A stretch of 64,000 bases of DNA from Bacteroidota bacterium (GTDB lineage: Bacteria; Bacteroidota; Bacteroidia; Bacteroidales; CAIWKO01), in NCBI GenBank assembly GCA_037128515.1, contig JBAXWF010000002.1, positions 49,586 to 113,585 on the forward strand, read 5' to 3'. A program made the position numbers and the translations under genes. This document shows, piece by piece, positions 1-23,103 of the stretch. The notes beneath the pieces were generated by a model. That model ran no database searches. It saw only the letters and a list, made by a program, of their open reading frames with translations, and was not told the DNA's origin. Within the stretch, counting starts at the first letter, position 1; every line of letters starts with the position of its first letter.

Positions 1-2
1 TT

Positions 3-6541: not shown

Positions 6542-6547
6542 AAAAAA

Positions 6548-6577: not shown

Positions 6578-6596
6578 GTGTTTTTTAAAGATGGTT

Positions 6597-7541
6597 TTAT
6601 TTTTTGAGCAACATACACCCCGACGAATAACCTCCTCCAAAAACTGTGACTACTGCCAGGTTGTCCTTTTGAAGTTTATCCCAGGTTTGTGAAAGAGCTA
6701 TTGCAGAACTTGCACTACCTGTGTTGCCCAAATATTCGATATTGGTAACAACCGATCCATTGTGCAGACCCAATAGGTCGCCTACTTTGTTGATGATACG
6801 CATATTCGCCTGATGAGGAATGAGGTAGGTGAGATCTTTTATTGTAAAACCATTATGTTCTAATATGCTTTGCGTATTTGACGACATGAGTTTGCTGGCA
6901 TTTATAAATACATCTTTACCATCGCCCATCTGAATCCGATCTTCTAAAGGACGCAAATTAACAGCATGCATTGCTTTTGCAAAATGAGCATATCCTCTGG
7001 TTTCAATTTCAATAACTTCTACATCAAATTCTGTAAACCTTTCTTTGGTTACGCTCATAGCTGCAGCACCATCGCCCCATAAAAATCCGGAATAGGTGTT
7101 ATTCTCATCATTATATATAGTATTGTGTTCAGAAACAACCACCAAAGCTTTACTGGCTTTATTCATAGCAAAATAGCCTTCTACAATTTCCATTGCATTG
7201 ACAAAGGATGAACAAGCTGTTGAAACTGAAACAACTTGTGCATTTTCAATTTTAAAAAAATGTTGTAGCTGATGTGCAAGTGTTGCAACGGTATCGTGTG
7301 GCGAATAGGTAGCACCCACTATCAAATCCACATCTTTTATATCAAATGGAATTTTATGTTGCAATAGTTCAGCAGCTTTAACACTCATAGTGTTTGTGTT
7401 TTCACCGACACCCGTAACACGGCGTTGCTTGATTCCTGATTTCTTAAAAATGTCATCTTCTGTCAAACCAATAAGTTTCGAAAAGTGCTCATTTGTCAGA
7501 ATCTGTTCGGGTAAATAGTGTGCTATTGAATTAATGAACAT
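6597..7541 (-). CDS. 3-oxoacyl-ACP synthase III (FabH/KAS-III family)
   Basis: 314 aa. Cys-His-Asn triad contexts: STACSSF, IPHQANMRI, YLGNTGSAS. Confidence 0.85.
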   Translation of the reverse strand: MFINSIAHYLPEQILTNEHFSKLIGLTEDDIFKKSGIKQRRVTGVGENTNTMSVKAAELLQHKIPFDIKDVDLIVGATYSPHDTVATLAHQLQHFFKIENAQVVSVSTACSSFVNAMEIVEGYFAMNKASKALVVVSEHNTIYNDENNTYSGFLWGDGAAAMSVTKERFTEFDVEVIEIETRGYAHFAKAMHAVNLRPLEDRIQMGDGKDVFINASKLMSSNTQSILEHNGFTIKDLTYLIPHQANMRIINKVGDLLGLHNGSVVTNIEYLGNTGSASSAIALSQTWDKLQKDNLAVVTVFGGGYSSGCMLLKK

Positions 7542-7544
7542 GGT

Positions 7545-8138
7545 TTATTTTTTTATTGTTAGTATAAGCATTTCAGTTATTACGTTTTTCCGTTCTTGCA
7601 TAAATTGTTTAAAAGTATCTTCACTCATTTTGTTTTTTTCCATAATCACCTGCTTGATAGTGAAAGGAAATGTTATGAGTGAAAGCATATTGATAAAAAA
7701 TTGTGTTGGGTCAGTTCCTTTTATGTTTCCTTTTCGGACTTCCTCCGAAAATTGTTTAGAAAAATTTCCTGTATTGTAAAGACTTTGAAAAATTTTCATC
7801 TTTGTAATTTTATCAGGATTACGATGCAAAACCGAAAGTACAAAATAAGTGAGTTTCGGGTTTTCCAGAAGTATATCTATGTATTCTTCAACGTATAACT
7901 TAATTTTTTCTTCAATAGGCAGTGGCGAACTTAAAATGCTGTTTAATTCAGGTGTGTATTTGCCTAACAAACTTGAAAAAATTGAATTGAACAGATTTTC
8001 TTTACTACGGAAATAATAATTTAACAGGGCAATATTAATTTTAGCTTTAACGGATATCTCGCGGATACTCGTACGTTCAAATCCTTTTTCGAGGAAGAGC
8101 CCCAATGCTGTTTTCTTTATTTTGTCTTCCGTTGTCAT
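7545..8138 (-). CDS. TetR/AcrR-family transcriptional regulator
   Basis: The N-terminal HTH (KIKKTALGLFLEKGFERTSIREISVKAKINIALLNYYFRSKENLF) supports the call. Start chosen at ATG 8138 (MTTEDK). The gene ends 3 nt before the KAS-III gene. Confidence 0.85.
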   Translation of the reverse strand: MTTEDKIKKTALGLFLEKGFERTSIREISVKAKINIALLNYYFRSKENLFNSIFSSLLGKYTPELNSILSSPLPIEEKIKLYVEEYIDILLENPKLTYFVLSVLHRNPDKITKMKIFQSLYNTGNFSKQFSEEVRKGNIKGTDPTQFFINMLSLITFPFTIKQVIMEKNKMSEDTFKQFMQERKNVITEMLILTIKK

Positions 8139-8148
8139 TTTGAGTTTG

Positions 8149-8156
8149 CAAATGTA
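8149..8156 (-). promoter_or_regulatory. candidate -7 box TACATTTG for the TetR/KAS-III operon
   Basis: The reverse complement of CAAATGTA matches TAnnTTTG, 11 nt upstream of the ATG. Confidence 0.35.
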
Positions 8157-8313
8157 AACAATAATTTTAAACAAATGTTTAAAACGGGGTTTAATTATTT
8201 TGCATAATCTCACTAATACCAATATATACAGATGATTAAATGAAGGAAAAGTTGTGACATTTTTTCTAAATTAAAAACTAAAAAGTTAAAACTAAACGAT
8301 TTAGAAAACAGCC

Positions 8314-9261
8314 TTATTTTCTGAATAATTTACCTTGCCATGTATTGCGCAATTTCATTTGGTTTTCAATCTTTACCAATACCTGATCGGTACGTATTAA
8401 TCCCCATGAACTGTGGGTTAAGAATCGTGGGGGGACTTCGCCCGATAAGCGCTCAATTATAATATCAGGATGCAAAAGTTCAAGAAAATCCATAATGAAA
8501 TCAATATACTCGTCCAAACCAAATAAATGGAAACTTTTGGGGTTGGTTTTAAACTCAGATTCCATTGTTGTGTTTTTCAAAATCTGAAGTTGGTGAAGCT
8601 TAAGGCTGTTAATTGGCAATGCAGATAAAATGGCAGCTTCAGCCAACATTTGTAAACGACTTTCGCCGGGCAGCCCAAATATTATATGTGCACCAACAAA
8701 TAAATTTCGAGCGGCAGTTTGCCTGATGGCTTGTTTTGCCAATTCAAAACTATGTCCTCGGTTGATAGACGTTAAAGTGCGATTATAGCACGATTCAATA
8801 CCATATTCAACCGAGACGAAATGTGTTTTTGCTATTTCGGCTAAAAAATCAAGTTTTTTATCATCAACACAATCGGGGCGAGTGCCTATCGAGATACCCG
8901 AAATCATGGGATGTGCAAGTGCTTCGCCATAGATTTTTTTTAATTTTTCCAACTCCTTATATGTGTTAGAGTAGGGTTGAAAATAGGCTATGTACTTTGT
9001 TGCGCGCCGATAACGCGTTTTATGAAAATCAATACCTTCATCAATTTGTTGCGTTATGTTTTTTTCGGGTTGGCAGTAGGAAGGATTAAAAGCGTCGTTG
9101 CAGCAATAGGTACATCCGTTTCTCGCAATAGTTCCATCGCGGTTCGGACAAGTAAAACCGGCATCAATGCTGAGTTTTTGCAAACGGGTGCCATAGGTTT
9201 TTAGGCAATAAGCCGCAAAAGTATTGAATCTTCGGTTATTGAACATTTCCGGTGCGAACAT
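8314..9261 (-). CDS. radical SAM protein, TIGR01212 (YhcC-like) family
   Basis: The motif KLSIDAGFTCPNRDGTIARNGCTYC and the 315-aa length are typical of this family. Confidence 0.8.
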   Translation of the reverse strand: MFAPEMFNNRRFNTFAAYCLKTYGTRLQKLSIDAGFTCPNRDGTIARNGCTYCCNDAFNPSYCQPEKNITQQIDEGIDFHKTRYRRATKYIAYFQPYSNTYKELEKLKKIYGEALAHPMISGISIGTRPDCVDDKKLDFLAEIAKTHFVSVEYGIESCYNRTLTSINRGHSFELAKQAIRQTAARNLFVGAHIIFGLPGESRLQMLAEAAILSALPINSLKLHQLQILKNTTMESEFKTNPKSFHLFGLDEYIDFIMDFLELLHPDIIIERLSGEVPPRFLTHSSWGLIRTDQVLVKIENQMKLRNTWQGKLFRK

Positions 9262-9263
9262 GC

Positions 9264-10148
9264 TTAAATGCTATATTTCACCATGACAAATTTGCCGTCA
9301 GTGATGGAAATTTCGGGTATCGAAATTCGTTTTGAATTGAATGAAAATATTCCCGAAATTCTTTGATTAATTTTATCAATAGTTGTCAGATTCAAGCTGC
9401 CTTTTATTCCGTAATAGATTTCATCTGTTGTGGATATTGAATTGGGTTTCCACAAAGCATCAAACTCATGTAGGCTTAGCGAATCGTTCAGTGCATAATT
9501 TCCTGTTATCGTATCATGAATTTGAATGTTGAGCAGGTCGCCCGAGCTTGCCACTCCGGTGATATTATATCCGCTGCCTGATTTCACACTCATCTGGTTC
9601 ACCGACATCCAAGGTGTGGTATTGCTCATAGCGGTTATTGTACCACCTTTCATTCCCGATAAAAACGTGGTTTGTGTTTTGCCCAAGGTATAGTCAAGGT
9701 TGGTGAACACACCACTTGTAAAATTTTTATAATATAGCTGTGTTGAATTCGCTGTGAAATGAAATGTACCGTAAAGATATTTTAAATTTACGTCGATTTG
9801 CGAAAGGTTCAAGCTGCCGCTTTTTGCCGAGTAAACTATTTCGTTTGCCGTGCCAATGCCGCTTTTATAGGTTGCAGTAAATTCAAACACGCTATTACCA
9901 ACATCCAAGGTAAAAGTTTGGGGCATGCTGCCATGAATCACCATACTAAGTTCTTCATTGGGCTTGGTTGCCGTAATCGTATACGCACCGCTGCTATAAA
10001 CAGCAGAGAAATCGGAGGCAGTCCAAACGCTGCCGTTCAACGAAAAAGTTACACAGGGAACAACAGGTGTAACCTGATTATCATCATTCTTTTTGCACGA
10101 AGCTGCAAGTAAAATAGAAAGCACTACCAATACAACTAGTTTTTTCAT
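9264..10148 (-). CDS. lipoprotein of unknown function with an internal two-domain duplication
   Basis: Signal peptide plus lipobox (LLAASC). Two repeated modules end GSLNLSQIDV..GTFHF and GSLNLTTIDK..GIFSF. Confidence 0.7.
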   Translation of the reverse strand: MKKLVVLVVLSILLAASCKKNDDNQVTPVVPCVTFSLNGSVWTASDFSAVYSSGAYTITATKPNEELSMVIHGSMPQTFTLDVGNSVFEFTATYKSGIGTANEIVYSAKSGSLNLSQIDVNLKYLYGTFHFTANSTQLYYKNFTSGVFTNLDYTLGKTQTTFLSGMKGGTITAMSNTTPWMSVNQMSVKSGSGYNITGVASSGDLLNIQIHDTITGNYALNDSLSLHEFDALWKPNSISTTDEIYYGIKGSLNLTTIDKINQRISGIFSFNSKRISIPEISITDGKFVMVKYSI

Positions 10149-10160
10149 GATTCCCTATTT

Positions 10161-11297
10161 CTAACTTAACTCTTCAATGATTTCAATATAATTCACATTA
10201 CGTTTGCCAAGTTCTATTAGTAGATATTCTACGCAATCGGGGTATTGACCAATATATTCCGGAACCGACAAACCTTTTTTGGTATACAATCCGTTTGCAA
10301 TCATTCGCAGTGCACAAGTAGCCGTATAGCCTGTGGTACGTGCCATCGAATGGGTATGTGTTTCTTCGTCATAGCGGTCGAGGAGGTCGTAAGTATAGCG
10401 AAGTTTTTTATTGTTTTTTGTTCCTTCAACAATCACTTTCATTATAGTAAGGTCTCGCTCACCGGGTTTTAGTTCCCATAGCGGAAACAGCAACTTGGCA
10501 GTTATATCCATGGGTTTTACTTTCACACCATTTACATCAATTTCGTTCTGACTAAAGAAACCTGTTTCGCGCAGCACTTTTACCAAAGCCACATGCCCCG
10601 GGTAACGTAAGGTTTTTTCTTTGATGTTTGCTGCTTTAATGGTTTTCCCTAGCGACCGTATACCATCGCTATTGAACGATTCCAAGGTTCCAATGCCTGG
10701 AAAGTTCAATAATTCTGTATCCGATAGTGCTTCGCGTGTAATTTCTTTGAAATTTTCGATATAGCGAGCCGGTCGTGTATATTCTTCCACCACATCGATA
10801 GGAGAAAAACCGGCTTTATATTCATACGGATATTCACGTATTTCGGGCAAGCCACCCACGTAGGTGAGCGAAGTTTCAGTTTCGTCGAGCAAATGGGCCA
10901 CATAGCCTGTCAATATATGCATCATACCCGGAGCCACCCCGCAATCCATAATTGCAATCACATTGTTTTTCAGTGCCAGTTCGCTTAGTTCAAATGGGTC
11001 TTCGGGAAAAAAAGCAATATCAACAGTGTTTTTTTTAGCTTCAATTATTGCTTTCAATGTTTGAAATCCCATAAATCCGGGAACAGCGTTTATCACCATA
11101 TCATACCCTGCAACGAGCTTCTTTACGGTTTGGGGATTCGACAAATCCTGCATAATAGTTGTGATGCCAAATTTGTTTAAACGTGCAAACGATTTATTAC
11201 TAATATCGGCTATGGCAACTTCAAATTTACCATCTTTTGCCAAATCTATAGCCATAGGCCCACCAACCAAACCAGCTCCCAAAACAATAACTTTCAT
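10161..11297 (-). CDS. saccharopine dehydrogenase-family NAD(P)-binding protein
   Basis: Start chosen at MKVIVLGAGLVGGPMAIDLA (Rossmann GxGxxG). About 378 aa. The family is recognised from the N- and C-terminal domains. Confidence 0.75.
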   Translation of the reverse strand: MKVIVLGAGLVGGPMAIDLAKDGKFEVAIADISNKSFARLNKFGITTIMQDLSNPQTVKKLVAGYDMVINAVPGFMGFQTLKAIIEAKKNTVDIAFFPEDPFELSELALKNNVIAIMDCGVAPGMMHILTGYVAHLLDETETSLTYVGGLPEIREYPYEYKAGFSPIDVVEEYTRPARYIENFKEITREALSDTELLNFPGIGTLESFNSDGIRSLGKTIKAANIKEKTLRYPGHVALVKVLRETGFFSQNEIDVNGVKVKPMDITAKLLFPLWELKPGERDLTIMKVIVEGTKNNKKLRYTYDLLDRYDEETHTHSMARTTGYTATCALRMIANGLYTKKGLSVPEYIGQYPDCVEYLLIELGKRNVNYIEIIEELS

Positions 11298-11412
11298 ACT
11301 TTTTTTTATGTAAAAGTAGTAAAAAATCGGAAAAGTATGCTGCAAAATTCTGACATTTACATTTGATATTTTATTTTTGCAGGAAGAAATTTCTAAAAAT
11401 AAAAAGGGGATT

Positions 11413-11988
11413 ATGACATACCATCCTCCCTTCACCAACCGAAAATCGCAACGATTAAACCATTATGATTATTCAAAGGATAATCTGTATTTTGTAACGT
11501 CATGCGTTAAAGACCGCGTTTGTTGTTTTGGCGAAATTGTTGGTAAAAAAATGAAATTGAACGATCACGGAAAAATTGCCGAAAAACAATGGTTTTGGTT
11601 GGGCCAACAATATTCGTATGTTGTTTTGCATGCATTTACGGTGATGCCCAATCATATTCATAGCATTATTGAAATTGATCATAATCGCGTTATCGATATT
11701 GTAGGGACAGGTCGCGACCTGTCCCTACAATACGATCCGTCCAAACGAAATGATCCGTCAAAAAAACAAAAAATAAAATCCCTGTCCGAATTGATGGGTG
11801 CATACAAAACAACCGTTTCGAAACAAATACATTTGTCGGGCGATAAACATTTTGCATGGCAACGTTCCTTTCACGATCATATCATTCGCAACCACAATGA
11901 ATATCAGGCCATTTCTAATTATATCAATAACAACCCTGCAAAATGGAATGATGATATGTTTTTCAATTCCGATATTCCAACATTATAA
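11413..11988 (+). CDS. IS200/RAYT-like HUH (Y1) transposase-family protein, solitary
   Basis: HUH motif MPNHIHSII (HIH at 11653-11661). C-terminal WQRSFHDHIIRN...YINNNPAKW. No flanking IS ends are evident. Confidence 0.75.
   Translation: MTYHPPFTNRKSQRLNHYDYSKDNLYFVTSCVKDRVCCFGEIVGKKMKLNDHGKIAEKQWFWLGQQYSYVVLHAFTVMPNHIHSIIEIDHNRVIDIVGTGRDLSLQYDPSKRNDPSKKQKIKSLSELMGAYKTTVSKQIHLSGDKHFAWQRSFHDHIIRNHNEYQAISNYINNNPAKWNDDMFFNSDIPTL
11697..11732. repeat. perfect 36-bp palindrome inside the HUH gene
   Basis: TATTGTAGGGACAGGTCGCGACCTGTCCCTACAATA equals its own reverse complement. It encodes the linker IVGTGRDLSLQY. Confidence 0.95.
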
Positions 11989-12073: not shown

Positions 12074-12688
12074 TCATCTGATACCATACAGTATCGGTTT
12101 GCTTGCAGGCATCAGGCCTGCTTTTGTGAGCGGGCGAACCCTGAACCAACGCTTCGTATCGGGAGTGCCCGACAGATAGGTTTTGCGTTGCTTCGATACC
12201 CCTGCAAACAACCATGCACTGTCGCTTACGGGTAATTTATCATCTGCACTCACCTGCCAGAGATAACTTACTGCTTTCGGATATGCCACACATCCTATCA
12301 GGAATTCTCCGGGGCTCATGCCTGCCAGAATCCAGAAATCGTCGCGCTGCGACGCTTCAGGTTCTTTTGATAATTCAAAACCACTGCTGATGATGATGCC
12401 TTCATCATCATCAGCAGTGACATCAACATATTTGGCCAGTTTGCGCAATAGTTCGAGCAAACTTTTCTTCGAATTTTTCAGGTTCGAATGGTCAAGTTTA
12501 CTTCCGCCTTGTGCAAGTGCGGCTTTATCTTCCACATCGTCGATGGCCGCCGTTACGTCGACCAGTTTCGGACTGGGAGTTGTGAAATTAGGATTACCGG
12601 TCATTTTGTCTACGACAGAACGACTAAATACTATCAGCTTGTCTACTGAGTAGCGAACAAAGCTGAAAATTAATTTTCTAAGTCTCAT
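12074..12688 (-). CDS. hypothetical protein (GC-rich orphan)
   Basis: 204-aa ORF. Sampled 60-nt windows reach about 60% GC, against roughly 30-38% in the neighbouring sequence. No motif recognised. Confidence 0.65.
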   Translation of the reverse strand: MRLRKLIFSFVRYSVDKLIVFSRSVVDKMTGNPNFTTPSPKLVDVTAAIDDVEDKAALAQGGSKLDHSNLKNSKKSLLELLRKLAKYVDVTADDDEGIIISSGFELSKEPEASQRDDFWILAGMSPGEFLIGCVAYPKAVSYLWQVSADDKLPVSDSAWLFAGVSKQRKTYLSGTPDTKRWFRVRPLTKAGLMPASKPILYGIR

Positions 12689-13438
12689 TTCTTAAAAAAT
12701 TTAAGGGTTTATAAATAATATAACTAACACAAAGGATGTCCTTTTTTGAAATAAAAAACGGCAACAAGCACGTTGTCAATAAATAAGTAGTATAAGATTT
12801 GAATGTAATGCGGGCAGCATATATTGCTGCCAGCCAGTTAATAATGCCGTTTCTGGCAATGCAAACCAAAAACCAACGAATGCAAGCATGAAAACGTCGG
12901 AAAGTTGTTTGCAATGCTAAAATTAAGCTTGTAAAAAATGTTTTTGCGCTTAAATGAATTGAATTGCTGATAGTTTTGCTGCGAAAAATGCTACTGATGC
13001 TTTGTTTCGGCAGCGCGTGGATGAAAAACCTTGTATGTGAAACCCGAACCGGCATGATACACAAAATATTTTTTACTCTTTTTCGAAAAAAAAGTTTTTC
13101 GTTTAAAAACTTATATTTTCAGGGTAAAATCTATTTCATGTTTTGGTTCTTTTGGTTGATGTTGTTTGTGTGCTTAATTATAATAATAACGTTTCAGGAA
13201 TTGTATTATTTTACAGAAGTATAAATTTTTTTGATTTTTTTTAAGAAATCGAAAAAAAATTATTTTAAAATAATCGTATTCATGTGAATTTGTTTAAATT
13301 TGGAGGGTGAATTGAAATATTTTTAATTTTGAGGAGTTAAACAATTAAATCGGACGTTTTTGAGAAGTGGATATATATCCAAGGCACTCCGATTATAAAT
13401 CCGGGTAAACGAGGCGGATTAATAAAATTTGCATTTTC

Positions 13439-14764
13439 ATGTTTGGAATAACACATAAACTTAATGATCCATCACTTTATCTTTTGCATGATATTGCAGA
13501 AGGACAATTATTCCGGGCGGAGGAAAATCTCGCTTTATGTACTTTAGACCAAGTTGAAAAAATCACCCTATTAAAAGATCAGATAGCGAATTATAAGAAT
13601 GAAATAGCTGAATTTGAAAAGGAAGTTGCAAATCTAAAAAATGAAATGTTTCAATTTTCTTTAGAAGAACTATATTCTATGTATGGGCAATTCGAAAATA
13701 GGTTTGTTGGAATTGAATTTCATAAATTATCTGATTCTGCAAAAAAATTTGGTAGAAATATAGGAGGTATTATAGTCTACAAAAAATCTGAACGAGAAGA
13801 ATTAGATAAAATAATTAATTCCGGAAATATATCAAGAACAGATGGTCTAGTCAAGATGGAAGTAACATCAAATTATAACATGTCAAAAGAGCAATATGAT
13901 GAATTACTAAACAACGGGTTTAATTGCAGAGATATCTATCAAATTTCATCATCAAATATTCCTGTTCAAAAATCATTTAAGATAGAAGGATTAAAAGAAA
14001 TACCTCATACACTAAATATCAACATTGATCCTACTGGAATAGAACCACTAAAAATATTTATGGGCCTTTGCACTCGAAGGATCAAAATGGGGAAAAAATT
14101 AATCCATAATGAATGGTGTAAATTGTATGGATACCTATTATATTATGAACCTGAAATTATAAAATCTGAGTCAATAACTAAAAAATTTATTGACAAGAAT
14201 GGGAATAAAGATAGAAAAGTTAGATTTTATGAACTATTTGCAAAACTATTTAATAAAGACTTTAAAAAAGAAGAAGTATTAGAGTTTGGAGATTTGCTAT
14301 TAGAAAGAAGCGAAAATAGAATTGAGATAATCAAAGATGAGATTAAAAAGTCAATGAATATTTCTACTGATGAATTTTCCAAAAAACATCCTATTATTTG
14401 GGAATCTATTCGAAGTAGTGCTGCTATTTTTGAGGAAGAATCATTAGAATATCTTGAAACAATAATTCCGATTTATTGGGATTTTAGAGGTTATTTACAC
14501 ATTTATTTAAGACATTGTGAAGAACTTCAAATTGAAGGACACTTTGAAAATAAAACTAAATTTCAGTATAATCAAAAGGATATTAGAAATGTTTTAGAAA
14601 TTGCAATTCGCAAACTCTATAAAAGTATTAATGCCCGCCTTTCATCTGGTAAAGATTTTAGGATATATGGGGATCAATCACTTTATTTTAATGGGAATTA
14701 TTATGCTTTAAGAATTGAACCCGATGGAAGAATAGATTCATTTTTTCCGTATGAAATAAAATAA
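13439..14764 (+). CDS. hypothetical protein with an N-terminal coiled coil
   Basis: 441-aa ORF, AT-rich, with heptad-like LKDQIANYKNEIAEFEKEVANLKNEM. No catalytic motif recognised. Confidence 0.7.
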   Translation: MFGITHKLNDPSLYLLHDIAEGQLFRAEENLALCTLDQVEKITLLKDQIANYKNEIAEFEKEVANLKNEMFQFSLEELYSMYGQFENRFVGIEFHKLSDSAKKFGRNIGGIIVYKKSEREELDKIINSGNISRTDGLVKMEVTSNYNMSKEQYDELLNNGFNCRDIYQISSSNIPVQKSFKIEGLKEIPHTLNINIDPTGIEPLKIFMGLCTRRIKMGKKLIHNEWCKLYGYLLYYEPEIIKSESITKKFIDKNGNKDRKVRFYELFAKLFNKDFKKEEVLEFGDLLLERSENRIEIIKDEIKKSMNISTDEFSKKHPIIWESIRSSAAIFEEESLEYLETIIPIYWDFRGYLHIYLRHCEELQIEGHFENKTKFQYNQKDIRNVLEIAIRKLYKSINARLSSGKDFRIYGDQSLYFNGNYYALRIEPDGRIDSFFPYEIK

Positions 14765-14843
14765 ACTACATTTTACTTAAAGTTGTTTTACAAAGAAACA
14801 ATAACCTAAAAGAGAAAATGAATAAACACTAAATAATAAGCTA

Positions 14844-15602
14844 ATGAAAAAACTAATTATCCTCTGTGTATTATCCGTTATGATGTCATGCGGAGTAAGT
14901 ACTTATTATCAGATATATAAAGCGACTCCTGAAGGAGGAGTTTTGACAAAAGAGTATGTTCAGTTTGAAGATAATAACTGTATAGTTAATTATGATTTGT
15001 GGTCCAATGGCGGTTACATAGACTTTTATGTTTTTAATAAGACCGACAATGATCTTACAGTTGATTTGACAAAATCTTTTTTTGCTATGAATGGCGAATC
15101 TGTTCAGTATTTTCAAAACAGGGTATTCTCAAATTCCACTAATTATGGAACAACAGTAAGCAAATCATACTATTCCAATAGTTACTGGTCAAAGAGTGTA
15201 TCAAAACTTTCAGCAACCAGTTCTTCGATTTCTTACAATGAAAAACCGGAACTTATAATTCCTCCTAAAACAAGATCGAATATCTCCATTTACAACGTTA
15301 CAGATGAGCGTTATATTAATTGTGATTTGGCAGACTTTCCATCAAGTAGGGATAATGAGGTTCTAAAATTTGATAAAACGAATAGCCCATTCATATTTAA
15401 CAATATTATCACTTACTCTGCAAATGGAATGGTTAACCGGTTTGACAATAAATTCTATGTTTCTGAAATAGCAAATTATTCATCATCAAATGTAAAAGTA
15501 TTAATTAGTGTTACAGAATGTGGAAAGCATTTAGAATATCCTTATTCGGCATTTAAAGATGTATCTCCTGATAAATTTTACATTAAATACACGAATCAGT
15601 AA
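14844..15602 (+). CDS. hypothetical lipoprotein
   Basis: Signal peptide plus lipobox (SVMMSCG). Asn/Ser/Tyr-rich mature part. Confidence 0.7.
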   Translation: MKKLIILCVLSVMMSCGVSTYYQIYKATPEGGVLTKEYVQFEDNNCIVNYDLWSNGGYIDFYVFNKTDNDLTVDLTKSFFAMNGESVQYFQNRVFSNSTNYGTTVSKSYYSNSYWSKSVSKLSATSSSISYNEKPELIIPPKTRSNISIYNVTDERYINCDLADFPSSRDNEVLKFDKTNSPFIFNNIITYSANGMVNRFDNKFYVSEIANYSSSNVKVLISVTECGKHLEYPYSAFKDVSPDKFYIKYTNQ

Positions 15603-15667
15603 AGCCAGTTCTCCCCACTCACTGTAATTTATAATCACAGTACGATAAAACCAAAAGAGTAAAAGGA

Positions 15668-15802
15668 TGTCTGAACCGGGATTTAAGCAGATGAACAATG
15701 TCATAACAGGAATTAAGCAGATTAAGCAGATTACTCAGATGCCAGGTATTATGAAAACTCCTTCTGCGTAATCCATTAATCTGATAAATCGTGGTTCAGA
15801 CA
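15668..15802. repeat. 135-bp hairpin-forming repeat element with 9-mer tandem units, upstream of the GxxExxY gene
   Basis: The termini TGTCTGAACC and GGTTCAGACA are inverted repeats. Three tandem ATTAAGCAG-type 9-mers lie at 15712-15738, with complementary CTGCGTAAT-type units on the right arm. Confidence 0.85.
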
Positions 15803-15825
15803 ATGATTTCAAATACCTTATAAAC

Positions 15826-16233
15826 ATGATAACCGAGGAATACAAATATAAAGAAATAACCGGACGCATAATAGGTGCGGCAATGCGGGTTCATAAAGAA
15901 CTTGGTAATGGTTTTCAGGAGGTAATTTACCAACGTGCTCTGGAACTGGAATTACCTTTTTTTGATTTGAAATTTGAACGCGAATACGAAATGCCCATTT
16001 ATTACCGTAATCAACAGATTGGAAGTCGCAGGGTTGATTTTCTGGTTGAAGAATTGGTTTCAGTAGAGCTGAAAGCCATAATTAAACTCGAAGATGTACA
16101 TCTGGCTCAGGCCATAAATTATTTGGAAGCTTATAATATTGAAGTGGGATTATTAATTAATTTTGGAAGCAAGAGTATAGAAATAAAACGGCTGGTCAAT
16201 ACAAAGTTCGTTCTGCGTAATCCTTTAATCTGA
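15826..16233 (+). CDS. GxxExxY-family protein (PD-(D/E)XK nuclease-like fold)
   Basis: Motif GFQEVIY (GxxExxY) and core RVDFLVEELVSVELK. The last ~8 codons (VLRNPLI*) are supplied by the downstream repeat. Confidence 0.85.
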   Translation: MITEEYKYKEITGRIIGAAMRVHKELGNGFQEVIYQRALELELPFFDLKFEREYEMPIYYRNQQIGSRRVDFLVEELVSVELKAIIKLEDVHLAQAINYLEAYNIEVGLLINFGSKSIEIKRLVNTKFVLRNPLI

Positions 16234-16308
16234 TGAATCGTGGTTCAGACAAAGGATGCTAAGATGTCAGAACCGGGATGAAGCAGATTAATCAGATTGA
16301 GCAGATTA
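16211..16308. repeat. second copy of the repeat with arms in swapped order (tight hairpin), overlapping the GxxExxY 3' end
   Basis: 16211-16251 matches 15762-15802 at 39 of 41 nt. GGTTCAGACA, 13 nt, then TGTCAGAACC forms a hairpin. 9-mers ATGAAGCAG/ATTAATCAG/ATTGAGCAG lie at 16278-16304. Confidence 0.85.
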
Positions 16309-16418
16309 TTAAAAAGAGAAAAAGAATAAAAGCTTAAAAAAAGTGTGAAGTATTGATGCGACTGTTAAAATAATTAAATTTGATTTTTAAAAGTTACAAC
16401 CAATTAAAACCAAAAAAA

Positions 16419-16766
16419 ATGAAACAATTAGCCGTTGGCGACAGCGTAAAAATTAAACAGGGTGTAATGAAACCCTATTTTGGGAAATTAGATCTGAGCG
16501 GCTGGCAGGGTCGTATACTAAAAATATTTTATGAAGACCTAACGGACAGTGGGCATGAGAAAAAATACCTCACTATCGAATACGACAGTATCACACTCAA
16601 ACAAATGACTGAAGAATATATCCTGGGGATGACAGGAGAAGGATTCCCTTTTGCTGAAACTGAAATTTCATACAAGGATATTAACGTTGTTTCTCCCCGC
16701 GATTCGGAAGAAGAAACGACCTCTGTCAGGATGGAATTAAATAAAAAGTATAATTGGGATATTTAA
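16419..16766 (+). CDS. hypothetical protein (115 aa)
   Basis: ATG 16419 (MKQLAVGDSVKIK...). No recognised motif. Confidence 0.6.
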   Translation: MKQLAVGDSVKIKQGVMKPYFGKLDLSGWQGRILKIFYEDLTDSGHEKKYLTIEYDSITLKQMTEEYILGMTGEGFPFAETEISYKDINVVSPRDSEEETTSVRMELNKKYNWDI

Positions 16767-16858
16767 AGGGGGTTCAAAGTATAACCCACTCATTCCTACT
16801 GCTCCTTGTGTATGCAATATGGGTATGTTACACCCAAAAGAGTGAAAGGTAAAAAAAT

Positions 16859-17941
16859 ATGAAGACAAACAGTTTGTGGTTACTGCCTCTAATATTGATT
16901 CCTTTCAGTGCTTTTTCACAAAACCTTGTAAAAAACCCTGGTTTTGAGATTATTACAGACACAAACTTTAGTTTAGGATGGTATGACCAGAAATTAGATG
17001 GTAAAGTAAAATATTGGTCATCTCCTACCAGGTCCTCATCGGGTATTATAAAAAAAACAGGTCGAAAACCTTTATTTTATAATGATTTAGTATCCTACGA
17101 TAATACACCCAATGCACATTCCGGAAAGTTCATGTGTAAAATTACAATGTTCGGAACCATAGTAGATTTTGAGGACAGATCCTATCTTCAGGGAGAACTT
17201 TATAAACCCCTGATAAAAGGAAAAACATACCATATTGAATTCTGGATTGCTACAGGATTTATTAATACAGAACTGTTTACAAATAATATAGGGGTTGCAT
17301 TTCTGAAAAACGAATTTCACAGCACGGCTAATTCGGTTTTAAACCTGGCACCACTTCTTAATTATAGCGAAATACCTGACGCAAAACCAAAGGAATGGTA
17401 TAAAATCTCGTGGGATTTTGTAGCTCAGGATGCTTACGGGTATTTTATAATAGGGAATTTTTTTACTGACAAAAGAACAAAATCAAAGTTTGCCGGTCAT
17501 ACAGCTTTGCAACATGCTGTTTATTTAATTGACGATATTTCTCTAATTGAAGCTGATAGTTCCGGCCTATCATTGTTATTACAATCAGTTGAACTTAATA
17601 AACCAATACCTTTAAATAATGTTAATTTTGAAACTAACAAATCAGAGTTATTGGGAAGTTCTTTTGCTGAACTAAAGATTGTAATTGATTTCCTTCAAAA
17701 AAAACCGCAAACAAAAATTGAGATATCAGGGCATACGGATATTACGGGCAATGAAGAAGCTAATATTAAGCTATCCACAAACAGAGCCAAGGCAGTTTAT
17801 GATTATCTGATTACTCATGGTATTAGTTCAGGTAGATTAATTTACAAAGGTTATGGAAGCAGTATTCCAAAAGTAAGTAATGACACACCCGAAAACAGAG
17901 CAATAAATCGACGGGTTGAATTTAAAATTGTTAAACTGTAA
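16859..17941 (+). CDS. OmpA-family protein (N-terminal beta-sandwich-like domain plus C-terminal OmpA peptidoglycan-binding domain)
   Basis: Signal peptide. C-terminal motifs FETNKSEL...ISGHTDITGNEEANIKLSTNRAKAV...NRRVEF. Confidence 0.85.
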   Translation: MKTNSLWLLPLILIPFSAFSQNLVKNPGFEIITDTNFSLGWYDQKLDGKVKYWSSPTRSSSGIIKKTGRKPLFYNDLVSYDNTPNAHSGKFMCKITMFGTIVDFEDRSYLQGELYKPLIKGKTYHIEFWIATGFINTELFTNNIGVAFLKNEFHSTANSVLNLAPLLNYSEIPDAKPKEWYKISWDFVAQDAYGYFIIGNFFTDKRTKSKFAGHTALQHAVYLIDDISLIEADSSGLSLLLQSVELNKPIPLNNVNFETNKSELLGSSFAELKIVIDFLQKKPQTKIEISGHTDITGNEEANIKLSTNRAKAVYDYLITHGISSGRLIYKGYGSSIPKVSNDTPENRAINRRVEFKIVKL

Positions 17942-18009
17942 CTCAACTCGCTCAGATTTACAGATAAGAGTAACTAAACCCCAAATAGTAAAAGAATAAA
18001 ACCAAAAAT

Positions 18010-19251
18010 ATGGAAAACAATATTAAATGCCCTGCATGCGGTCATGAATTTCAGGTAGAAGATGCCTTTTTCAACCAAGCTGAAGAAAAGATTAAAAAAG
18101 ATTATGAAAAGAAGTTTTCTCAGCAAGCTGCCATATTTTATAAAAAGACTGAGGCTTTAGAGAAAGAAAAAGAAGAGTTTGAAAAGAAAAAAGAAAAGGA
18201 AAATGAGCTTTTTAAGGAAAGACTGGATAAGAAAATAGAAGAGGAAAAGGTTAAACTTCAAAAGTCAACTGCAGAAGAATTTGAACTCAAGATAAAAGAA
18301 CTGCAAAGTGAGAACGAAAAAAGAAAGGCTGAGAATAAGGAATTAAAAGAAAAAGAATTAAGCATTCTCAAAAGAGAAGCACAACTGAAAGAAAAGCAGG
18401 AAGAAATGGAATTGGAATTCCAGAAAAAAATGCTTGAAAAGAGAGATGAAATAGCTGCAGAAGTTAGAAAAACTGAGCATGAAAAGAATGAATTAAAATT
18501 TAAGGACTTCGAAAAGAAATTTGAGGATCAAAAAAAACTGATAGAAGAAATGCAGCGCAAGGCCGAACAAGGTTCCATGCAATTGCAGGGAGAAGTTCTG
18601 GAACTTGCTATTGAAGAATGGCTGGCAGCTCAATTTCCATTAGATACCATTGAAGAAATTAAAAAAGGCGCCAGGGGTGGCGATTGTATTCAGATTGTAA
18701 ATACACGCACGCATCAAAACTGCGGTACCATTTATTATGAAAGCAAAAGAACCAAAGATTTTCAGGCGGGTTGGATAGACAAATTTAAGAATGATATTCG
18801 GGAGAAAAGTGCCAATGTGGGCGTCATTGTTACAGAGGCAATGCCCAATGATATGGAAAGAATGGGGTTAAAAGACGGCATTTGGATCTGCTCTTATGAA
18901 GAGTTTAAAGGGTTATGCACTGTTCTAAGAGAATCCATCATACAAATAAGCAATGCAGTTTCTTCCCAGGAAAACCGTGGAGACAAGATGCACATGCTGT
19001 ATGATTACCTAACAAGTAATACATTTCGTTTGCAGGTAGAAGCCATTGTAGATGGGTTTACTCAAATGCGCATCGATCTGGACAGTGAGAAACGAGCCAT
19101 GCAAAGCATTTGGAAAAAACGTGAAAAACAAATTGAAAAGGTTACTATTAACACCATTGATATGCATAGTTCTATAAAGGGGATCGCAGGGAATGCGATA
19201 CAAGCGGTTAAATTGATGGAGTTGCCGGAAATAAATCAAGAAGAAGAATAA
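18010..19251 (+). CDS. DUF2130-like protein (Zn-ribbon, long Lys/Glu coiled coil, C-terminal PD-(D/E)XK-like module)
   Basis: N-terminal KCPACGHEFQVEDAF and about 190 aa of E/K-rich coil. C-terminal GEVLELAIEEWL...GGDCIQIV...YESKRTKDF. Family assignment is from memory. Confidence 0.65.
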   Translation: MENNIKCPACGHEFQVEDAFFNQAEEKIKKDYEKKFSQQAAIFYKKTEALEKEKEEFEKKKEKENELFKERLDKKIEEEKVKLQKSTAEEFELKIKELQSENEKRKAENKELKEKELSILKREAQLKEKQEEMELEFQKKMLEKRDEIAAEVRKTEHEKNELKFKDFEKKFEDQKKLIEEMQRKAEQGSMQLQGEVLELAIEEWLAAQFPLDTIEEIKKGARGGDCIQIVNTRTHQNCGTIYYESKRTKDFQAGWIDKFKNDIREKSANVGVIVTEAMPNDMERMGLKDGIWICSYEEFKGLCTVLRESIIQISNAVSSQENRGDKMHMLYDYLTSNTFRLQVEAIVDGFTQMRIDLDSEKRAMQSIWKKREKQIEKVTINTIDMHSSIKGIAGNAIQAVKLMELPEINQEEE

Positions 19252-19277
19252 ATAGTTATTATACTAAGAAAGTAGTC

Positions 19278-19760
19278 ATGGATATCCCCAAGTTCATAGC
19301 AACACTCAGCAAAGAGGAACTGAAAGAACTGGAAGATTTTTTGCACCAGAAAAAAGTTGCCGATAATATTGATGAGCAGGAGTGGTATCACATTCAATTT
19401 CTGGCACTAAAAGAAAAACAAAAACAGCAGGCATGGGATGCTCTGAAAAATAGAGAAACAGGTGCGGTACCCATTATTGATTTTATTGATATTGTTGAAC
19501 TACCCTGCAAACTGAAGTGGGTGCTGAAAAAGTTGTGGGACGATCGTATAGCGTATTATCTGGATGATATAAGCCGGAAGAAGTTTCTAAAGATACGACA
19601 TGCAGGGGTTGGCACCTGGAATATATTAATGGATATCATAAAAACCTTGCTACAGGGAACCCGCTTTCAAGCACAGCAACCCCGTTCGGCGGCAGGCTAT
19701 GCCTCCGTCGTATTATTAATCGAAACTCCGCCTCAATCCCCATTTGAAAATTCCTGCTAA
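19278..19760 (+). CDS. small MDIPKF-family paralog A (alpha-CTD-like helix-hairpin-helix inferred; divergent C-terminus)
   Basis: The first 402 nt are collinear with paralog C at about 92-93% identity. The tail from 19680 is unrelated. Confidence 0.7.
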   Translation: MDIPKFIATLSKEELKELEDFLHQKKVADNIDEQEWYHIQFLALKEKQKQQAWDALKNRETGAVPIIDFIDIVELPCKLKWVLKKLWDDRIAYYLDDISRKKFLKIRHAGVGTWNILMDIIKTLLQGTRFQAQQPRSAAGYASVVLLIETPPQSPFENSC

Positions 19761-19864
19761 TTGTGCTAAGTTTACAACTTAATTTTTAAATTTGCTCTTT
19801 GCCCCAACAATCACTAACTTTGTCTTTCCGTTTATTTGAATTTATTATTAAAAAATAAAGTCTT

Positions 19865-20299
19865 ATGGATATCCCAAAATTTGTATCATCGCTCACCGAA
19901 AATGAGTTAAAACAATTGAGAAAATATTTAAAAAATGAAAACATAGTAAGTCATATTGATGAACATGAACAATATCGATTAGATTGTGAGGCGAAAAAGG
20001 AAAAAGAAACACAGGAGGCGTGGGAAGCCATGAAAAGCAGAACTACGGGAGTGATACCCGTTATCGATTTTTTTGATAATTTGGAATTGCCGTCAAGAAT
20101 AAGATACATAGTTAAAGGTTTATGGGACGATCGTGTTGCTTATTATATGGATGATATTACGAAAAAGAAATTCTTTACCAGAAGAAATGCAGGCAAATTG
20201 AGTTGGGTTAAAATGATAGATTTTATAAAGTCCTCGCTGAAAGGAACCATTTATGAAGCTCATCAAGAAGCATTGTTAAAGCATTTTGAAGATCAGTAA
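19865..20299 (+). CDS. small MDIPKF-family paralog B (divergent copy)
   Basis: Same architecture: MDIPKF..., ...LPSRIRYIVKGLWDDRVAYYMDDITKKKFFTRRNAGKLSW... About half of residues match A and C. Confidence 0.7.
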   Translation: MDIPKFVSSLTENELKQLRKYLKNENIVSHIDEHEQYRLDCEAKKEKETQEAWEAMKSRTTGVIPVIDFFDNLELPSRIRYIVKGLWDDRVAYYMDDITKKKFFTRRNAGKLSWVKMIDFIKSSLKGTIYEAHQEALLKHFEDQ

Positions 20300-20317
20300 C
20301 CAAAACCCAATCCCAAA

Positions 20318-20782
20318 ATGGATATCCCCAAGTTCATAGCAACACTCACCAAGGTGGAACTGAAAGAACTGGAAGATTTTTTACATGTGAAAAAAGTTGC
20401 CGATAATATAGATGAGCAGGAGTGGTACCACATTCAATTTCTGGCACTAAAAGAAAAACAAAAACAGCAGGCATGGGATGCTCTGAAAAACAGGGAAACA
20501 GGGGCAATACCCATCATTGATTTTATTGATACTGTTGAACTGCCCTGCAAACTGAAGTGGGTGCTGAAAAAGTTGTGGGACGATTGTATAGCGTATTATC
20601 TGGATGATATAAGCCGGAAGAAGTTTCTAAAGATACGTCATGCAGGGGTTGCCACCTGGAATATATTAATGGATAGTATAAAAACCTCGCTGAAAGGAAC
20701 CCGATTTGAAGTTCAGCAAGCAAAGCTGACGAAGCATTTCGAGTGGCAGGAATCGTTGAAAGGTATTAAAGGCGTCAATTAA
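20318..20782 (+). CDS. small MDIPKF-family paralog C
   Basis: Near-duplicate of paralog A, offset by exactly 1040 nt. Confidence 0.7.
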   Translation: MDIPKFIATLTKVELKELEDFLHVKKVADNIDEQEWYHIQFLALKEKQKQQAWDALKNRETGAIPIIDFIDTVELPCKLKWVLKKLWDDCIAYYLDDISRKKFLKIRHAGVATWNILMDSIKTSLKGTRFEVQQAKLTKHFEWQESLKGIKGVN

Positions 20783-20811: not shown

Positions 20812-23103
20812 TCAATTCACAATCTTCAACTTGGCATATTGCAACAACAATTGTTTTGAACCTACACCATCGAACAACACGGTAGTTTTTTTGTTGGGTC
20901 CGTTGCCTTCAACGGTCATCACTTTTCCGCGGCCAAAGCGCTGATGTTCTACGGTCATGCCTATGCGTATGTCGTCGATGTCGGATGGAGAGAAGGGTTC
21001 CGAAAGGGTGTTGTTGGTTTCGCTTAGCTTTTTCAGGTTCAGCGGTTTTTTCTGCAGAGGTTGAACCATGGGTTTCTGCAGCCAGGGATTGTCGAGTTTT
21101 TGTTGCGGTGTTTTGCGCGGCACATCGATAAATTTCGGGTCGATCTCGTCGATGAAGCGGCTCACCTCGCTGAATATCATCTCGCCGTATTTGTAACGGT
21201 TTTCGGCATAGGACAAGGTCAGGCGTTTCATGGCCCGTGTGATGGCCACATAGAACAGGCGGCGTTCTTCTTCCAGGTCGTCGCGGCTGTGGAGCGACTG
21301 CATGGAAGGAAAGAGATTTTCTTCCAACCCGCTTACGAAGACATAAGGAAACTCAAGGCCTTTGGCCTGATGTATGGTCATTAAAGATACACGGTCGGTA
21401 TTATTCTTATCTTCGGTGTCGGCATCGGTGAGCAGGGCAATGTCCTGCATAAAGATGTCGAGCGACTTGATGGAGTTTTCTATCAGGGTGCCGTCGGGGG
21501 CAAAAATATGTTCTTTTTCGGTAAACTCTTTGATGGCGTTGAGCAGTTCGTCTATATTTTCCAACCGAGCCACACCTTCGGGCGACTCGTCTTGTTTCAG
21601 TTCCTTGAAAATACCGCAAGCCAGAGCAATTTTTTTTGCCAGTTCGTAAGCATCTTTTATAGGCACTTGCACTGTAAAACTACGTATCATGGTAGTAAAA
21701 TCCTGTAGCCGCTGCATAATGCCTGAGTTTAACTGCAAATTAAACATTGCAGCCTGACTAATGATTTCCCACGAACTTTTTTTCAAAGCATTTGAAGCCA
21801 GCACCACCTTTTGTAGAGTGGTATCGCCAATGCCGCGCGCCGGGTAGTTGATACAGCGAAACAAGGCTTCTTCATCGTTGTTATTAATCACCAAACGGAA
21901 ATAGGCAAGCAAGTCTTTTATTTCTTTGCGTTTATAAAACGAAAGTCCTCCATAAATTTTATAGGGGATGTTTAACCGCCGCATGGCTTCTTCAATAGAG
22001 CGCGATTGTGCATTGGTGCGATACAACACTGCGAAATCGGAATTCGGCAATTGGTTATTCATTTTAATTTCGAACACCGAATTGGCAATCATGGAACCTT
22101 CTTCGTTATCAGAAGATGCTTTGAGCAACACAATTTTGTTGCCTTCTTCGTTTTCGGTCCAAATTTCTTTGAAATATTGTTTTTTATTTTTTTGTATTAC
22201 GCTGTTGGCAGCATTCACAATATTTTGTGTTGAACGATAGTTTTGTTCCAGTTTCACAGTTCTAGCATCAGGATAATCGCTTTTAAAGTTTAAAATATTC
22301 TGAATATTGGCTCCGCGAAAACCGTAAATACTTTGAGCATCGTCGCCCACAACACACAAATTTTCGTTATCGGCAGCCAGTTTTTTTATAATCATGTATT
22401 GGGCATAATTGGTATCCTGATACTCGTCAACCAATATATATTTAAACTTTCGCTGGTACTTATATAATATTTCGGGAAAATCGCGCAGAACCAAATTCAT
22501 ATTGTAGAGCAAATCGTCAAAATCCATAGCAAAAGCCCTTTTGAGTTTGTTCTGATAAATAGTAAAAAGTTGTCCGATTTGTGGTTTGCCCGAGGCTTTG
22601 TCATAATCCACCAACTCCACATTCCGATTGTAATCTTCCTGCGACATCAGATTGTTTTTTGCAGTCGATATCCGATGCAATACATAGGCAGGTGGATATT
22701 GTTTCACTTCCAAATTTTGTTCTTTCAATATGGCTTTCATGATACTTTTGGTGTCGTCGGTATCATAAATAGTGAAATTTTGCGGGTAGCCCAACACATG
22801 GCCATCAACACGAAGCACACGGGCAAAAACAGAGTGAAAGGTACCCATCCAAACATTCATTGCATCGGAAGAACCTACCAAACGTGTGATGCGGTCTTTC
22901 ATTTCGCGGGCTGCCTTGTTGGTGAATGTGAGCGAAAGTATATTAAAAGGGTCAACACCTTGATTTAACAAATGAGCAACTCTGTATGTCAGAACTCGGG
23001 TTTTACCCGAACCAGCCCCTGCCAATACCATAATTGGGCCGTTGATACATTCAACAGCATGTCGTTGGGTTTCGTTAAGATCAGCGAGAATATCTTTTTT
23101 CAT
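20812..23103 (-). CDS. ATP-dependent DNA helicase, UvrD/PcrA/Rep (SF1) family
   Basis: Start at MKKDILADLNETQ. Walker A AGAGSGKT, DEYQDTN, and QNYRS plus later SF1 motifs. Confidence 0.9.
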   Translation of the reverse strand: MKKDILADLNETQRHAVECINGPIMVLAGAGSGKTRVLTYRVAHLLNQGVDPFNILSLTFTNKAAREMKDRITRLVGSSDAMNVWMGTFHSVFARVLRVDGHVLGYPQNFTIYDTDDTKSIMKAILKEQNLEVKQYPPAYVLHRISTAKNNLMSQEDYNRNVELVDYDKASGKPQIGQLFTIYQNKLKRAFAMDFDDLLYNMNLVLRDFPEILYKYQRKFKYILVDEYQDTNYAQYMIIKKLAADNENLCVVGDDAQSIYGFRGANIQNILNFKSDYPDARTVKLEQNYRSTQNIVNAANSVIQKNKKQYFKEIWTENEEGNKIVLLKASSDNEEGSMIANSVFEIKMNNQLPNSDFAVLYRTNAQSRSIEEAMRRLNIPYKIYGGLSFYKRKEIKDLLAYFRLVINNNDEEALFRCINYPARGIGDTTLQKVVLASNALKKSSWEIISQAAMFNLQLNSGIMQRLQDFTTMIRSFTVQVPIKDAYELAKKIALACGIFKELKQDESPEGVARLENIDELLNAIKEFTEKEHIFAPDGTLIENSIKSLDIFMQDIALLTDADTEDKNNTDRVSLMTIHQAKGLEFPYVFVSGLEENLFPSMQSLHSRDDLEEERRLFYVAITRAMKRLTLSYAENRYKYGEMIFSEVSRFIDEIDPKFIDVPRKTPQQKLDNPWLQKPMVQPLQKKPLNLKKLSETNNTLSEPFSPSDIDDIRIGMTVEHQRFGRGKVMTVEGNGPNKKTTVLFDGVGSKQLLLQYAKLKIVN

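Follow-up and report, generated by a model that had tools for sequence, protein, structure and literature searches.

The locus and its genes

The window analysed here is a 64-kb stretch of DNA from a Bacteroidota bacterium (assembly GCA_037128515.1, contig JBAXWF010000002.1). At positions 13439-20782 it carries a locus of nine genes, g1 to g9, located between a saccharopine-dehydrogenase-like gene (10161-11300, minus strand) and a UvrD/PcrA-type helicase gene (20812-23103, minus strand), the latter followed by rpsL, rpsG and fusA (ribosomal-protein genes). An earlier note on this DNA had described the nine genes as an AT-rich, cassette-like array with recurring motifs at its junctions. We followed up this description and report that the motifs belong to a longer junction element, here called J, which is present at this locus and in a related array from a metagenomic contig. 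All nine open reading frames (ORFs) were found on the plus strand exactly where the note had placed them, and its gene annotations were upheld by Pfam and NCBIfam. The genes are listed below; designations with the prefix L refer to other loci to which the window was compared.

13439-14764, plus strand: g1, 441-aa orphan, 27.8% GC
14844-15602, plus strand: g2, lipoprotein signal, 31.0% GC, no Pfam or NCBIfam family
15826-16233, plus strand: g3, GxxExxY/PDDEXK_3 (E = 5e-37)
16419-16766, plus strand: g4, 115-aa orphan with homologs in L040 (85%) and L035 (~30%, C-terminal half)
16859-17941, plus strand: g5, OmpA-family, C-terminal OmpA domain (E = 6e-21)
18010-19251, plus strand: g6, DUF2130 (E = 2e-75)
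19278-19760, plus strand: g7, truncated chimeric paralog at the right edge of the island described below
19865-20782, plus strand: g8 and g9, 98-100% identical in DNA to L002

No match to g1 was found in Pfam, NCBIfam, PADLOC, PHROGs, the Protein Data Bank (PDB) or plasmids, and g1-g4 and g6-g8 were all without a match in PADLOC. Neither Pfam nor NCBIfam assigned a family to g4 or to g7-g9. The AlphaFold2 (AF2) model of g2, which is rich in β-strands (predicted local distance difference test score, pLDDT, of 83), did not match any PDB structure, and an assignment of g2 as an immunity protein was therefore not possible. Both g3 and g6 are PD-(D/E)XK-family proteins. DUF2130, the family of g6 within this superfamily, occurs also on plasmids of other phyla, and plasmid matches to DUF2130 were the only ones obtained when the array DNA was compared with plasmids and phages. 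The description of the array as AT-rich applies mainly to g1 and g2, the only genes with a GC content below the 5th percentile of 1.3-kb windows, and not to g7 (41.8%) and g9, which both exceed 40% and lie above the average of the window; the array as a whole has a mean of 33.8% GC, against 37.0% for the 64 kb. The reported lack of a tyrosine recombinase was borne out among the window ORFs checked: neither the array genes, nor the flanking genes, nor 10 further candidate ORFs matched Phage_integrase, and no such gene was called in ~16 kb beyond the window.

Between 12.6 and 21 kb, full plus-strand matches to the Bacteroidetes-type promoter pattern TTTG-N17-23-TAnnTTTG are found at two positions only:

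13299-13331, plus strand: candidate Bacteroidetes-type promoter before g1 (TTTG-N21-TAnnTTTG; consensus match only)
19791-19822, plus strand: candidate Bacteroidetes-type promoter before g8 (consensus match only)

Since the pattern precedes only g1 and g8, two transcription units, g1-g7 and g8-g9, are suggested.

A sequence-defined junction element

Two short boxes, one just after stop codons and one rich in purines before the next start, had been noted at several junctions, and both sit at the positions given for them. The first, CCCACTCA, has 3 exact copies in the 64 kb, which is not above chance. The purine-rich 16-mer has 2 exact copies and, at up to 3 mismatches, 6 matches against 1.9 expected; in 540 kb including 32 related loci, a search at up to 2 mismatches returned a single match, with 2 mismatches, in L011. 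Weak as they are in isolation, the two boxes are the ends of one longer element, J, of about 55-75 nt, which is made up of a left part of about 45 nt (J-left; consensus CCCCACTCGCTGTGATTTGTAATCAAAGTGCGATAAAACC) and a purine box of about 30 nt (AAAAGAGGAAAAGAATAAAAGCT).

An iterated nhmmer search, started from a profile of three copies, identified five strong copies of J (E values of 1e-8 to 1e-12), three of them in the window (15613-15668, 16799-16849 and 17942-17997; E values of 1e-8 to 1e-11) and two in L035 (9921-9976 and 14363-14417). Neither ~570 kb of other fetched DNA nor a further ~16 kb of the same genome gave a significant match to this profile. A second profile, restricted to the purine box, recovered further boxes in L035 and a weak copy in the window (14802-14829), these copies having been part of its training set, and returned nothing above 5 bits outside the arrays. 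In total, ~590 kb of other fetched DNA, relatives included, were searched for J. The copies in the window are the following:

14802-14829, plus strand: weak J at the g1/g2 junction; weak match to the purine box only, J-left degenerate
15612-15666, plus strand: J at the g2/g4 junction; J-left and first half of the purine box
16785-16849, plus strand: J at the g4/g5 junction, from CCCACTCA to CCAAAAGAGTGAAAGG
17942-18001, plus strand: J at the g5/g6 junction; J profile match

The sharing of motifs among junctions thus holds for four out of eight (g1/g2 weakly, g2/g4, g4/g5 and g5/g6), whereas none was found at g6/g7, g7/g8 or g8/g9. The opposite scenario, in which the motifs would stand upstream of many ordinary genes, is excluded by the ~590 kb searched; because J is absent from all of this DNA, which includes both relatives and the same genome, it is not a generic leader. 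J is a real element, specific to these arrays and fixed in orientation, all of the copies of J or its box (at least 12) pointing the same way. As read from the junctions, J-left starts 0-26 nt past a stop codon and the box and the start of the next cargo gene are 6-21 nt apart, or 68-94 nt where the cargo brings a promoter-like site.

The copy at 15612-15666 and the one upstream of the g2 homolog in L035 (CCCCCACTCGCTGTGATTTGTAATCAAAGTGCGATATAACCAAAAAAGAGTAAAAG) are identical at 47 of 55 positions (85%), while the g2 coding sequences of the two loci are 78% identical overall and 61% identical at third codon positions. The better conservation of J than of the adjacent coding sequence points to constraint or to recent exchange. 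A scan of 11-24 kb against Rfam (E ≤ 1) gave nothing at J, and the possibility that J is a promoter was ruled out, as no TTTG/TAnnTTTG pattern is found in it. An imperfect inner hairpin of 9 bp is weakly supported, with 73.6% of cells paired against 26-43% in slid controls, in an alignment of 6 sequences.

A reordered array in a metagenomic contig

L035, the metagenomic contig with two of the five strong copies, encodes a g2 homolog (75% identical) and has three families in common with the window, the other two being a g4-like gene and a 112-aa g8-like gene (E = 1e-13). These families are reordered: L035 reads 154-aa ORF, 208-aa ORF, g2, alcohol dehydrogenase, g8-like and, further on, g4-like and MNT-HepT, as against g1, g2, g4, g5, g6 in the window. 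Its other cargo includes the alcohol dehydrogenase, the MNT/HepT toxin-antitoxin pair and a HATPase_c-like protein, and J or its box is present at every module boundary. The core gene order is repeated in two other samples, in which genes for Mrr and a TIR-domain protein lie further upstream on the same strand. Two segments bounded by boxes (12527-13372 and 13585-14260) contain genes on the reverse strand, namely a 281-aa ORF and a HATPase_c-like ORF accompanied by a 100-aa ORF. Because the boxes keep the orientation of the array beside these reverse-strand genes, J is not simply the 5' untranslated region of the gene that follows.

This observation bears on an explanation in which J would be an expression element only, that is, a leader, a site of RNA processing or a region of translation initiation that travels with horizontally acquired genes, while the differences between modules would be the work of ordinary recombination, illegitimate or homologous, at a hotspot. 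Such a role would agree with the A/G-rich 3' half of J, which ends 6-21 nt before start codons, and with the motif AAGGAGG at Shine-Dalgarno distance in two of the L035 copies; J furthermore has no promoter pattern of its own, so that downstream genes need read-through, and no recombinase is linked to it. However, two array-oriented boxes in L035 precede the 3' ends of reverse-strand genes, and the conserved J-left (CCCCACTCGCTGTGATTTGTAATCA...) is not A-rich and is left unexplained by a leader role. The absence of J from ~590 kb of other DNA likewise implies that it is not the general initiation context of the lineage. We consider it rather unlikely that J acts in expression only, but this is the principal competitor of the interpretation developed below.

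Gene content differs at J

The window and L040, a close relative, differ by the presence or absence of a single module. In the latter, g4 (91% nucleotide identity), preceded by the same hairpin remnant as in the window, is followed directly by g6 (84% nucleotide identity), and the OmpA gene g5 is missing. The left side of the resulting junction resembles the J-left found on the g4 side in the window (z = 3.8) and its right side resembles the box and leader on the g6 side (z = 2.6), both values being modest. This arrangement fits a unit of gain or loss composed of leader, ORF and J-left, with its boundary near the start of the box. Together with the different neighbours of g2, g4 and the g8-like gene in L035, it bears out the cassette-like architecture proposed in the earlier note, in the sense that single modules differ at J. 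Other contexts of g2 or g4 homologs (L041, L044, L045, L049 and L050) were found to be devoid of J.

A hypervariable slot next to the helicase gene

In a species-level genome collection, the nearest relatives of the window are metagenome-assembled genomes (MAGs) of freshwater Bacteroidales, the closest being L002 (CAIWKO010000010), with a helicase of 92% protein identity. Window positions 33063 down to 19677 are collinear with L002, and homology returns at 13248-12999. Two features can be delimited on this basis:

12999-13248, strand not applicable: conserved left flank of the replaceable island (blastn against L002 18748-18998, 87.5%)
13249-19676, plus strand: genome-specific island of 6.4 kb; L002 holds a different cargo of 5.3 kb between the same flanks

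The cargo of L002 is a candidate defence system, PDC-M60 A/B/C (E values down to 1e-108). The system is complete (L002 13525-18591) and comprises a protein with a receiver and a PNP_UDP_1 effector, a receiver protein and a 1137-aa protein. In more distant relatives the gap between the helicase and dehydrogenase genes is only 2-4.5 kb and contains other cargo: an ABC-F ATPase in L003, L004 and L032, secreted proteins of the Kelch-repeat type in L005 to L009, a DUF4143 ATPase in L006, and an AAA_15/DUF3696 ATPase with a partner gene in L008. The comparison of synteny suggested in the earlier note accordingly revealed a different gene content in every relative examined, and g1-g7 were not found in the slot of any of them. 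Because the cargo differs among relatives and g1-g7 occur in none, the slot that separates the helicase gene from the saccharopine-dehydrogenase-like gene is a hypervariable replacement hotspot, and the segment 13249-19676 is private to this genome.

In these respects the locus resembles the hotspots of defence and flexible islands, in which a slot between two core genes receives a different cargo in each relative, here including PDC-M60 in L002 and the AAA_15/DUF3696 ATPase in L008. It differs from them in that no recognised defence system was found in the window cargo by PADLOC, and in that the cargo is divided into internal modules bounded by repeats, which hotspot islands normally lack.

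Two further peculiarities of the region were observed. Tandem arrays with a period of 21 nt, each with a sequence specific to its genome, are present in L002 (19113-19386), in the gaps of L003 and L004 and in L041 (2780-3010); they sit in non-coding DNA beside the variable slot or beside g4-like genes, and the window has none. One possibility is that they are iteron-like binding sites. Separately, a DUF6252 lipoprotein gene lies in the window at 9264-10148, between the saccharopine-dehydrogenase-like gene and a radical-SAM gene; these two genes are directly adjacent in L003 to L009, which indicates a second small insertion near the hotspot.

Layers added to the array

Parts of the locus do not belong to the succession of modules separated by J. 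The first of these is an element that contains g3 and splits a copy of J:

15667-16305, plus strand: inserted hairpin/GxxExxY element, splitting one J purine box
16306-16334, plus strand: latter half of the split purine box, AAAAGAGAAAAAGAATAAAAGCT, contiguous with 15612-15666 in the L035 version

Two long hairpins bracket the PDDEXK_3 gene (15826-16233) in this element, one ahead of it (15668-15802; z = -5.0) and another (16212-16305; z = -4.5) into which the 3' end of the gene extends. The flanks of the element form an imperfect 14-nt duplication of the target, AAAAGAGTAAAAGG at 15653-15666 and AAAAGAGAAAAAGA at 16306-16319. Upstream of the g4-like gene of L035, J and the leader are uninterrupted (CCCAAAAGAGGAAAAAAATAAAAGCTGAAAAAAAAG), whereas 15667-16305 interrupts this string in the window; the suspicion that the GxxExxY element had been inserted at 15666/15667 is thereby confirmed. 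In L040, the right side of the split box reads AAAAGAGTAAAGG. The motif of the hairpin arm, GTCWGAACCNNGAT, is found in the window at this element only. The GxxExxY hairpin element is an independent, presumably mobile layer that landed in a J box. It resembles a hairpin-bounded mobile element, of which no mobility has been described, and a hairpin of the same type but without a gene is present in L044 (8167-8792).

The second layer is g7, which together with g8 and g9 forms a set of paralogs. The first 402 nt of g7 (19278-19679) copy the 5' end of g9 with 93-94% identity, and from ~19677 onwards the reading frame runs into DNA that corresponds to the non-coding region upstream of g8 in L002. 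Because the remainder of g7 is read from ancestral non-coding DNA common to L002, g7 delimits the island on the right.

The third layer is the pair g8-g9. Between 19900 and 20700 the window is 98-100% identical in DNA to L002, where the counterpart of the pair occupies 12348-13265, while the adjoining helicase gene is only 77-90% identical; this indicates a patch that was exchanged laterally and recently. The g8 family is rare, with 38 clusters among 1.84 billion representatives in a profile search, and has no Pfam assignment; a homolog search by word index returned only g8 itself. Its AF2 model is all-helical (pLDDT 91.7). A likeness of g7-g9 to the C-terminal domain of the RNA polymerase alpha subunit was considered and found to be unsupported, as Foldseek did not retrieve any PDB match for this model. 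The view of the nine genes as one array does not survive these comparisons: the locus consists instead of a block of J cassettes, an independent hairpin/GxxExxY insertion, a truncated paralog and a g8-g9 pair that was acquired separately and has a promoter-like site of its own.

Comparison with integrons and rAID clusters

The earlier note had likened the locus to integrons and to rAID clusters (recombinase-associated acquired interbacterial defence). The analogy stands as far as architecture is concerned (oriented, packed and unrelated cargo, conserved junctions, variable content), but membership of either family fails.

The g2 family provides a direct point of reference, for it is a bona fide mobile cassette elsewhere. 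In L036, a g2 homolog is part of an array of eleven genes on the same strand with textbook attC sites, the junctions having arms of 18-20 nt that are 85-94% complementary and RYYYAAC/GTTRRRY cores; this integron cassette array spans positions 1-9917 of a contig of 11.9 kb on which no integrase is found. In L043, a g2 homolog lies downstream of a co-directional gene of the Phage_integrase family, and a 116-nt intergenic repeat occurs four times. The integrase gene of L043 (219 aa) heads a co-directional array of low GC content (4106-11786) with a layout like that of rAID clusters, from an environmental metagenome.

One may ask, then, whether the array is a decayed integron, i.e. a cluster of attC sites lacking integrase (CALIN), with J as a degenerate attC site. 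The modules of the window and L035 are tightly packed, one-directional, unrelated and mostly promoterless, with one oriented site between them; as in integrons, occasional cassettes are reversed, contain two genes (toxin-antitoxin) or are empty, and single cassettes differ between relatives. The presence of the g2 family in the genuine attC array of L036 and the toxin-antitoxin and defence type content of the L035 array point in the same direction. Nevertheless, when the window junctions were inspected for inverted repeats and cores, with no dedicated attC model run, none of them had a repeat of 10 nt or more, nor were RYYYAAC/GTTRRRY (R''/R') cores found, in contrast to the long complementary arms of L036. 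J is conserved in sequence and not in structure, is not an imperfect palindrome, and directly precedes the next ORF with a leader-like composition. No IntI was found among the window ORFs checked, which a CALIN would not require. A decayed integron is accordingly a highly improbable origin.

rAID-1 clusters are found in Bacteroidales and are defined by at least two co-directional genes with a GC content at or below 41% downstream of the recombinase, their gene tables consisting mostly of Imm families (Ross et al. 2019, bioRxiv 10.1101/471110; PMC12247911); the mechanism by which rAID arrays originate is still unknown (PMC12247911). The present array shares with them the order of the host, short and co-oriented genes, conserved intergenic motifs and an unexplained biogenesis, as well as a low GC content across its nine plus-strand genes, of which g7 alone is slightly over 41%. 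If it were an rAID-1 array, its recombinase would have to lie outside the window, for no XerD-like or other tyrosine recombinase gene is present at its 5' end, upstream of g1, where the conserved flank and a promoter-like site are found instead. In addition, none of the nine products (0/9) matches an Imm/SUKH-type family of Pfam, the kind that dominates rAID-1 clusters, and the host is a freshwater/environmental MAG and not a gut isolate. Assignment to rAID-1 thus seems very hard to sustain. Our verdict is an architecture like that of integrons and rAID clusters that belongs to neither family, the separation from rAID-1 being made without a comparison of intergenic motifs.

A mobile repeat of the kind formed by repetitive extragenic palindromes (REPs), bacterial interspersed mosaic elements (BIMEs) and miniature inverted-repeat transposable elements (MITEs) would be another source of conserved junctions. 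J would then be a non-autonomous repeat that colonises the intergenic spaces of gene clusters, possibly moved by a Y1 transposase of the IS200-like or REP-associated tyrosine transposase (RAYT) kind, such as the one encoded at 11377-11988. J is indeed short, intergenic and repeated and has a small hairpin with imperfect pairing; copies in one orientation would be expected of a strand-specific mechanism acting on single strands; the RAYT-like gene is found on the same strand, 1.4 kb upstream, and a Y1_Tnp gene is located near the g2 homolog of L044. REPs, however, are hairpins with a GTAG head that surround the RAYT gene in both orientations, whereas J lacks such a head as well as terminal inverted repeats and a target duplication, and is confined to arrays, once per junction and in one orientation, instead of being scattered. 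The RAYT-like gene possesses a different palindrome (11697-11732), and L035 contains J with no Y1 gene in 20 kb. We regard the spread of J as such a repeat as unlikely.

The RAYT-like gene itself (NF047646) is a weak match, with 52 bits against a cutoff of 80. Inside its ORF, at 11697-11732, is a perfect palindrome of 18+18 nt (36 nt) with a GTAG head, which looks as if it were a REP doublet within its own transposase gene; no RAYT-like gene was found within the fetched 10-kb flank of L002. A link between this gene and J was rejected, as its flanks hold a terminator-like hairpin only and are without J. All three of these explanations, spread as a REP or MITE, a decayed integron and membership of rAID-1, fit worse than the one in which J is an expression element only.

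A model for J-type cassette arrays

The interpretation that we favour, with a probability of roughly one half, is that 13249-19676 is a fragment or block of a J-type cassette array, in which modules are exchanged at J as their boundary, with the purine half of J acting as leader to the ORF that follows. A module reads, in order, purine box, spacer of 6-21 nt, cargo of 0-2 genes in either orientation, spacer of 0-26 nt and J-left. Modules would be joined and exchanged at J, either through a recombinase encoded elsewhere or because J itself acts as a portable stretch of homology. In its A/G-rich 3' half, J would provide an unstructured and sometimes Shine-Dalgarno-like leader to the next ORF, and the promoterless cargo would be read from an upstream promoter, for which the sequence at 13299-13331 is the candidate here. 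A block of such cassettes would have landed as one island in the helicase/saccharopine-dehydrogenase-like hotspot, the GxxExxY hairpin element, the truncated g7 and the g8-g9 pair being later and separately added layers. The presence of J in these arrays, its constant orientation, the differences in gene content at it and the variability of the slot are observed, whereas recombination at J, the identity of the enzyme and co-transcription of the cargo are inferred. The enzyme would not be encoded nearby, and homologous exchange between copies of J is a possible alternative.

Several observations weigh against this model. J is represented in three sources only (this genome, L040 and L035); an exact scan of JGI metagenomes for the combined motif returned the same genome only, and exact J patterns were not found in viral contigs. 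Neither the window nor L035 shows a recombinase linked to J, and in L035 an IS110 transposase is all that lies nearby. The crossover position is drawn from one presence/absence event at a junction that has diverged (z = 3.8). RNAalifold gave no consensus structure for J, and single RNA and DNA folds had z values near 0. The AAGGAGG that closes two of the L035 boxes, 6-7 nt before ATG, would also fit a purely translational role. Finally, the GC content of L035 jumps from ~70% to ~30% at 8557, where the array starts, and the contig may be partly chimeric or this may be a real junction; the order of the array is replicated in other samples despite the jump, with Mrr and TIR genes upstream there instead.

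Whether J-type arrays constitute a third, so far undescribed kind of cassette capture in Bacteroidota beside integrons and rAID clusters, with J (~75 nt, defined by sequence, fixed in orientation and unlike a folded attC) acting both as the site where a recombinase encoded elsewhere would assemble accessory and defence genes and as a translation leader, is a broader proposal that we put forward tentatively, as a possibility short of an expectation. To our knowledge, integrons are the only well-understood route by which bacteria build arrays of swappable genes. In practical terms, the 'nine-gene array' is better annotated as layered mobile DNA than as an operon. If the broader proposal is true, such a junction, the second or third of its kind, which is recognised by its sequence and also acts as a leader, would mean that cassette arrays evolved more than once, and J would offer a searchable signature for libraries of accessory and defence genes in uncultured Bacteroidota, which could also be used as bait to identify the enzyme involved.

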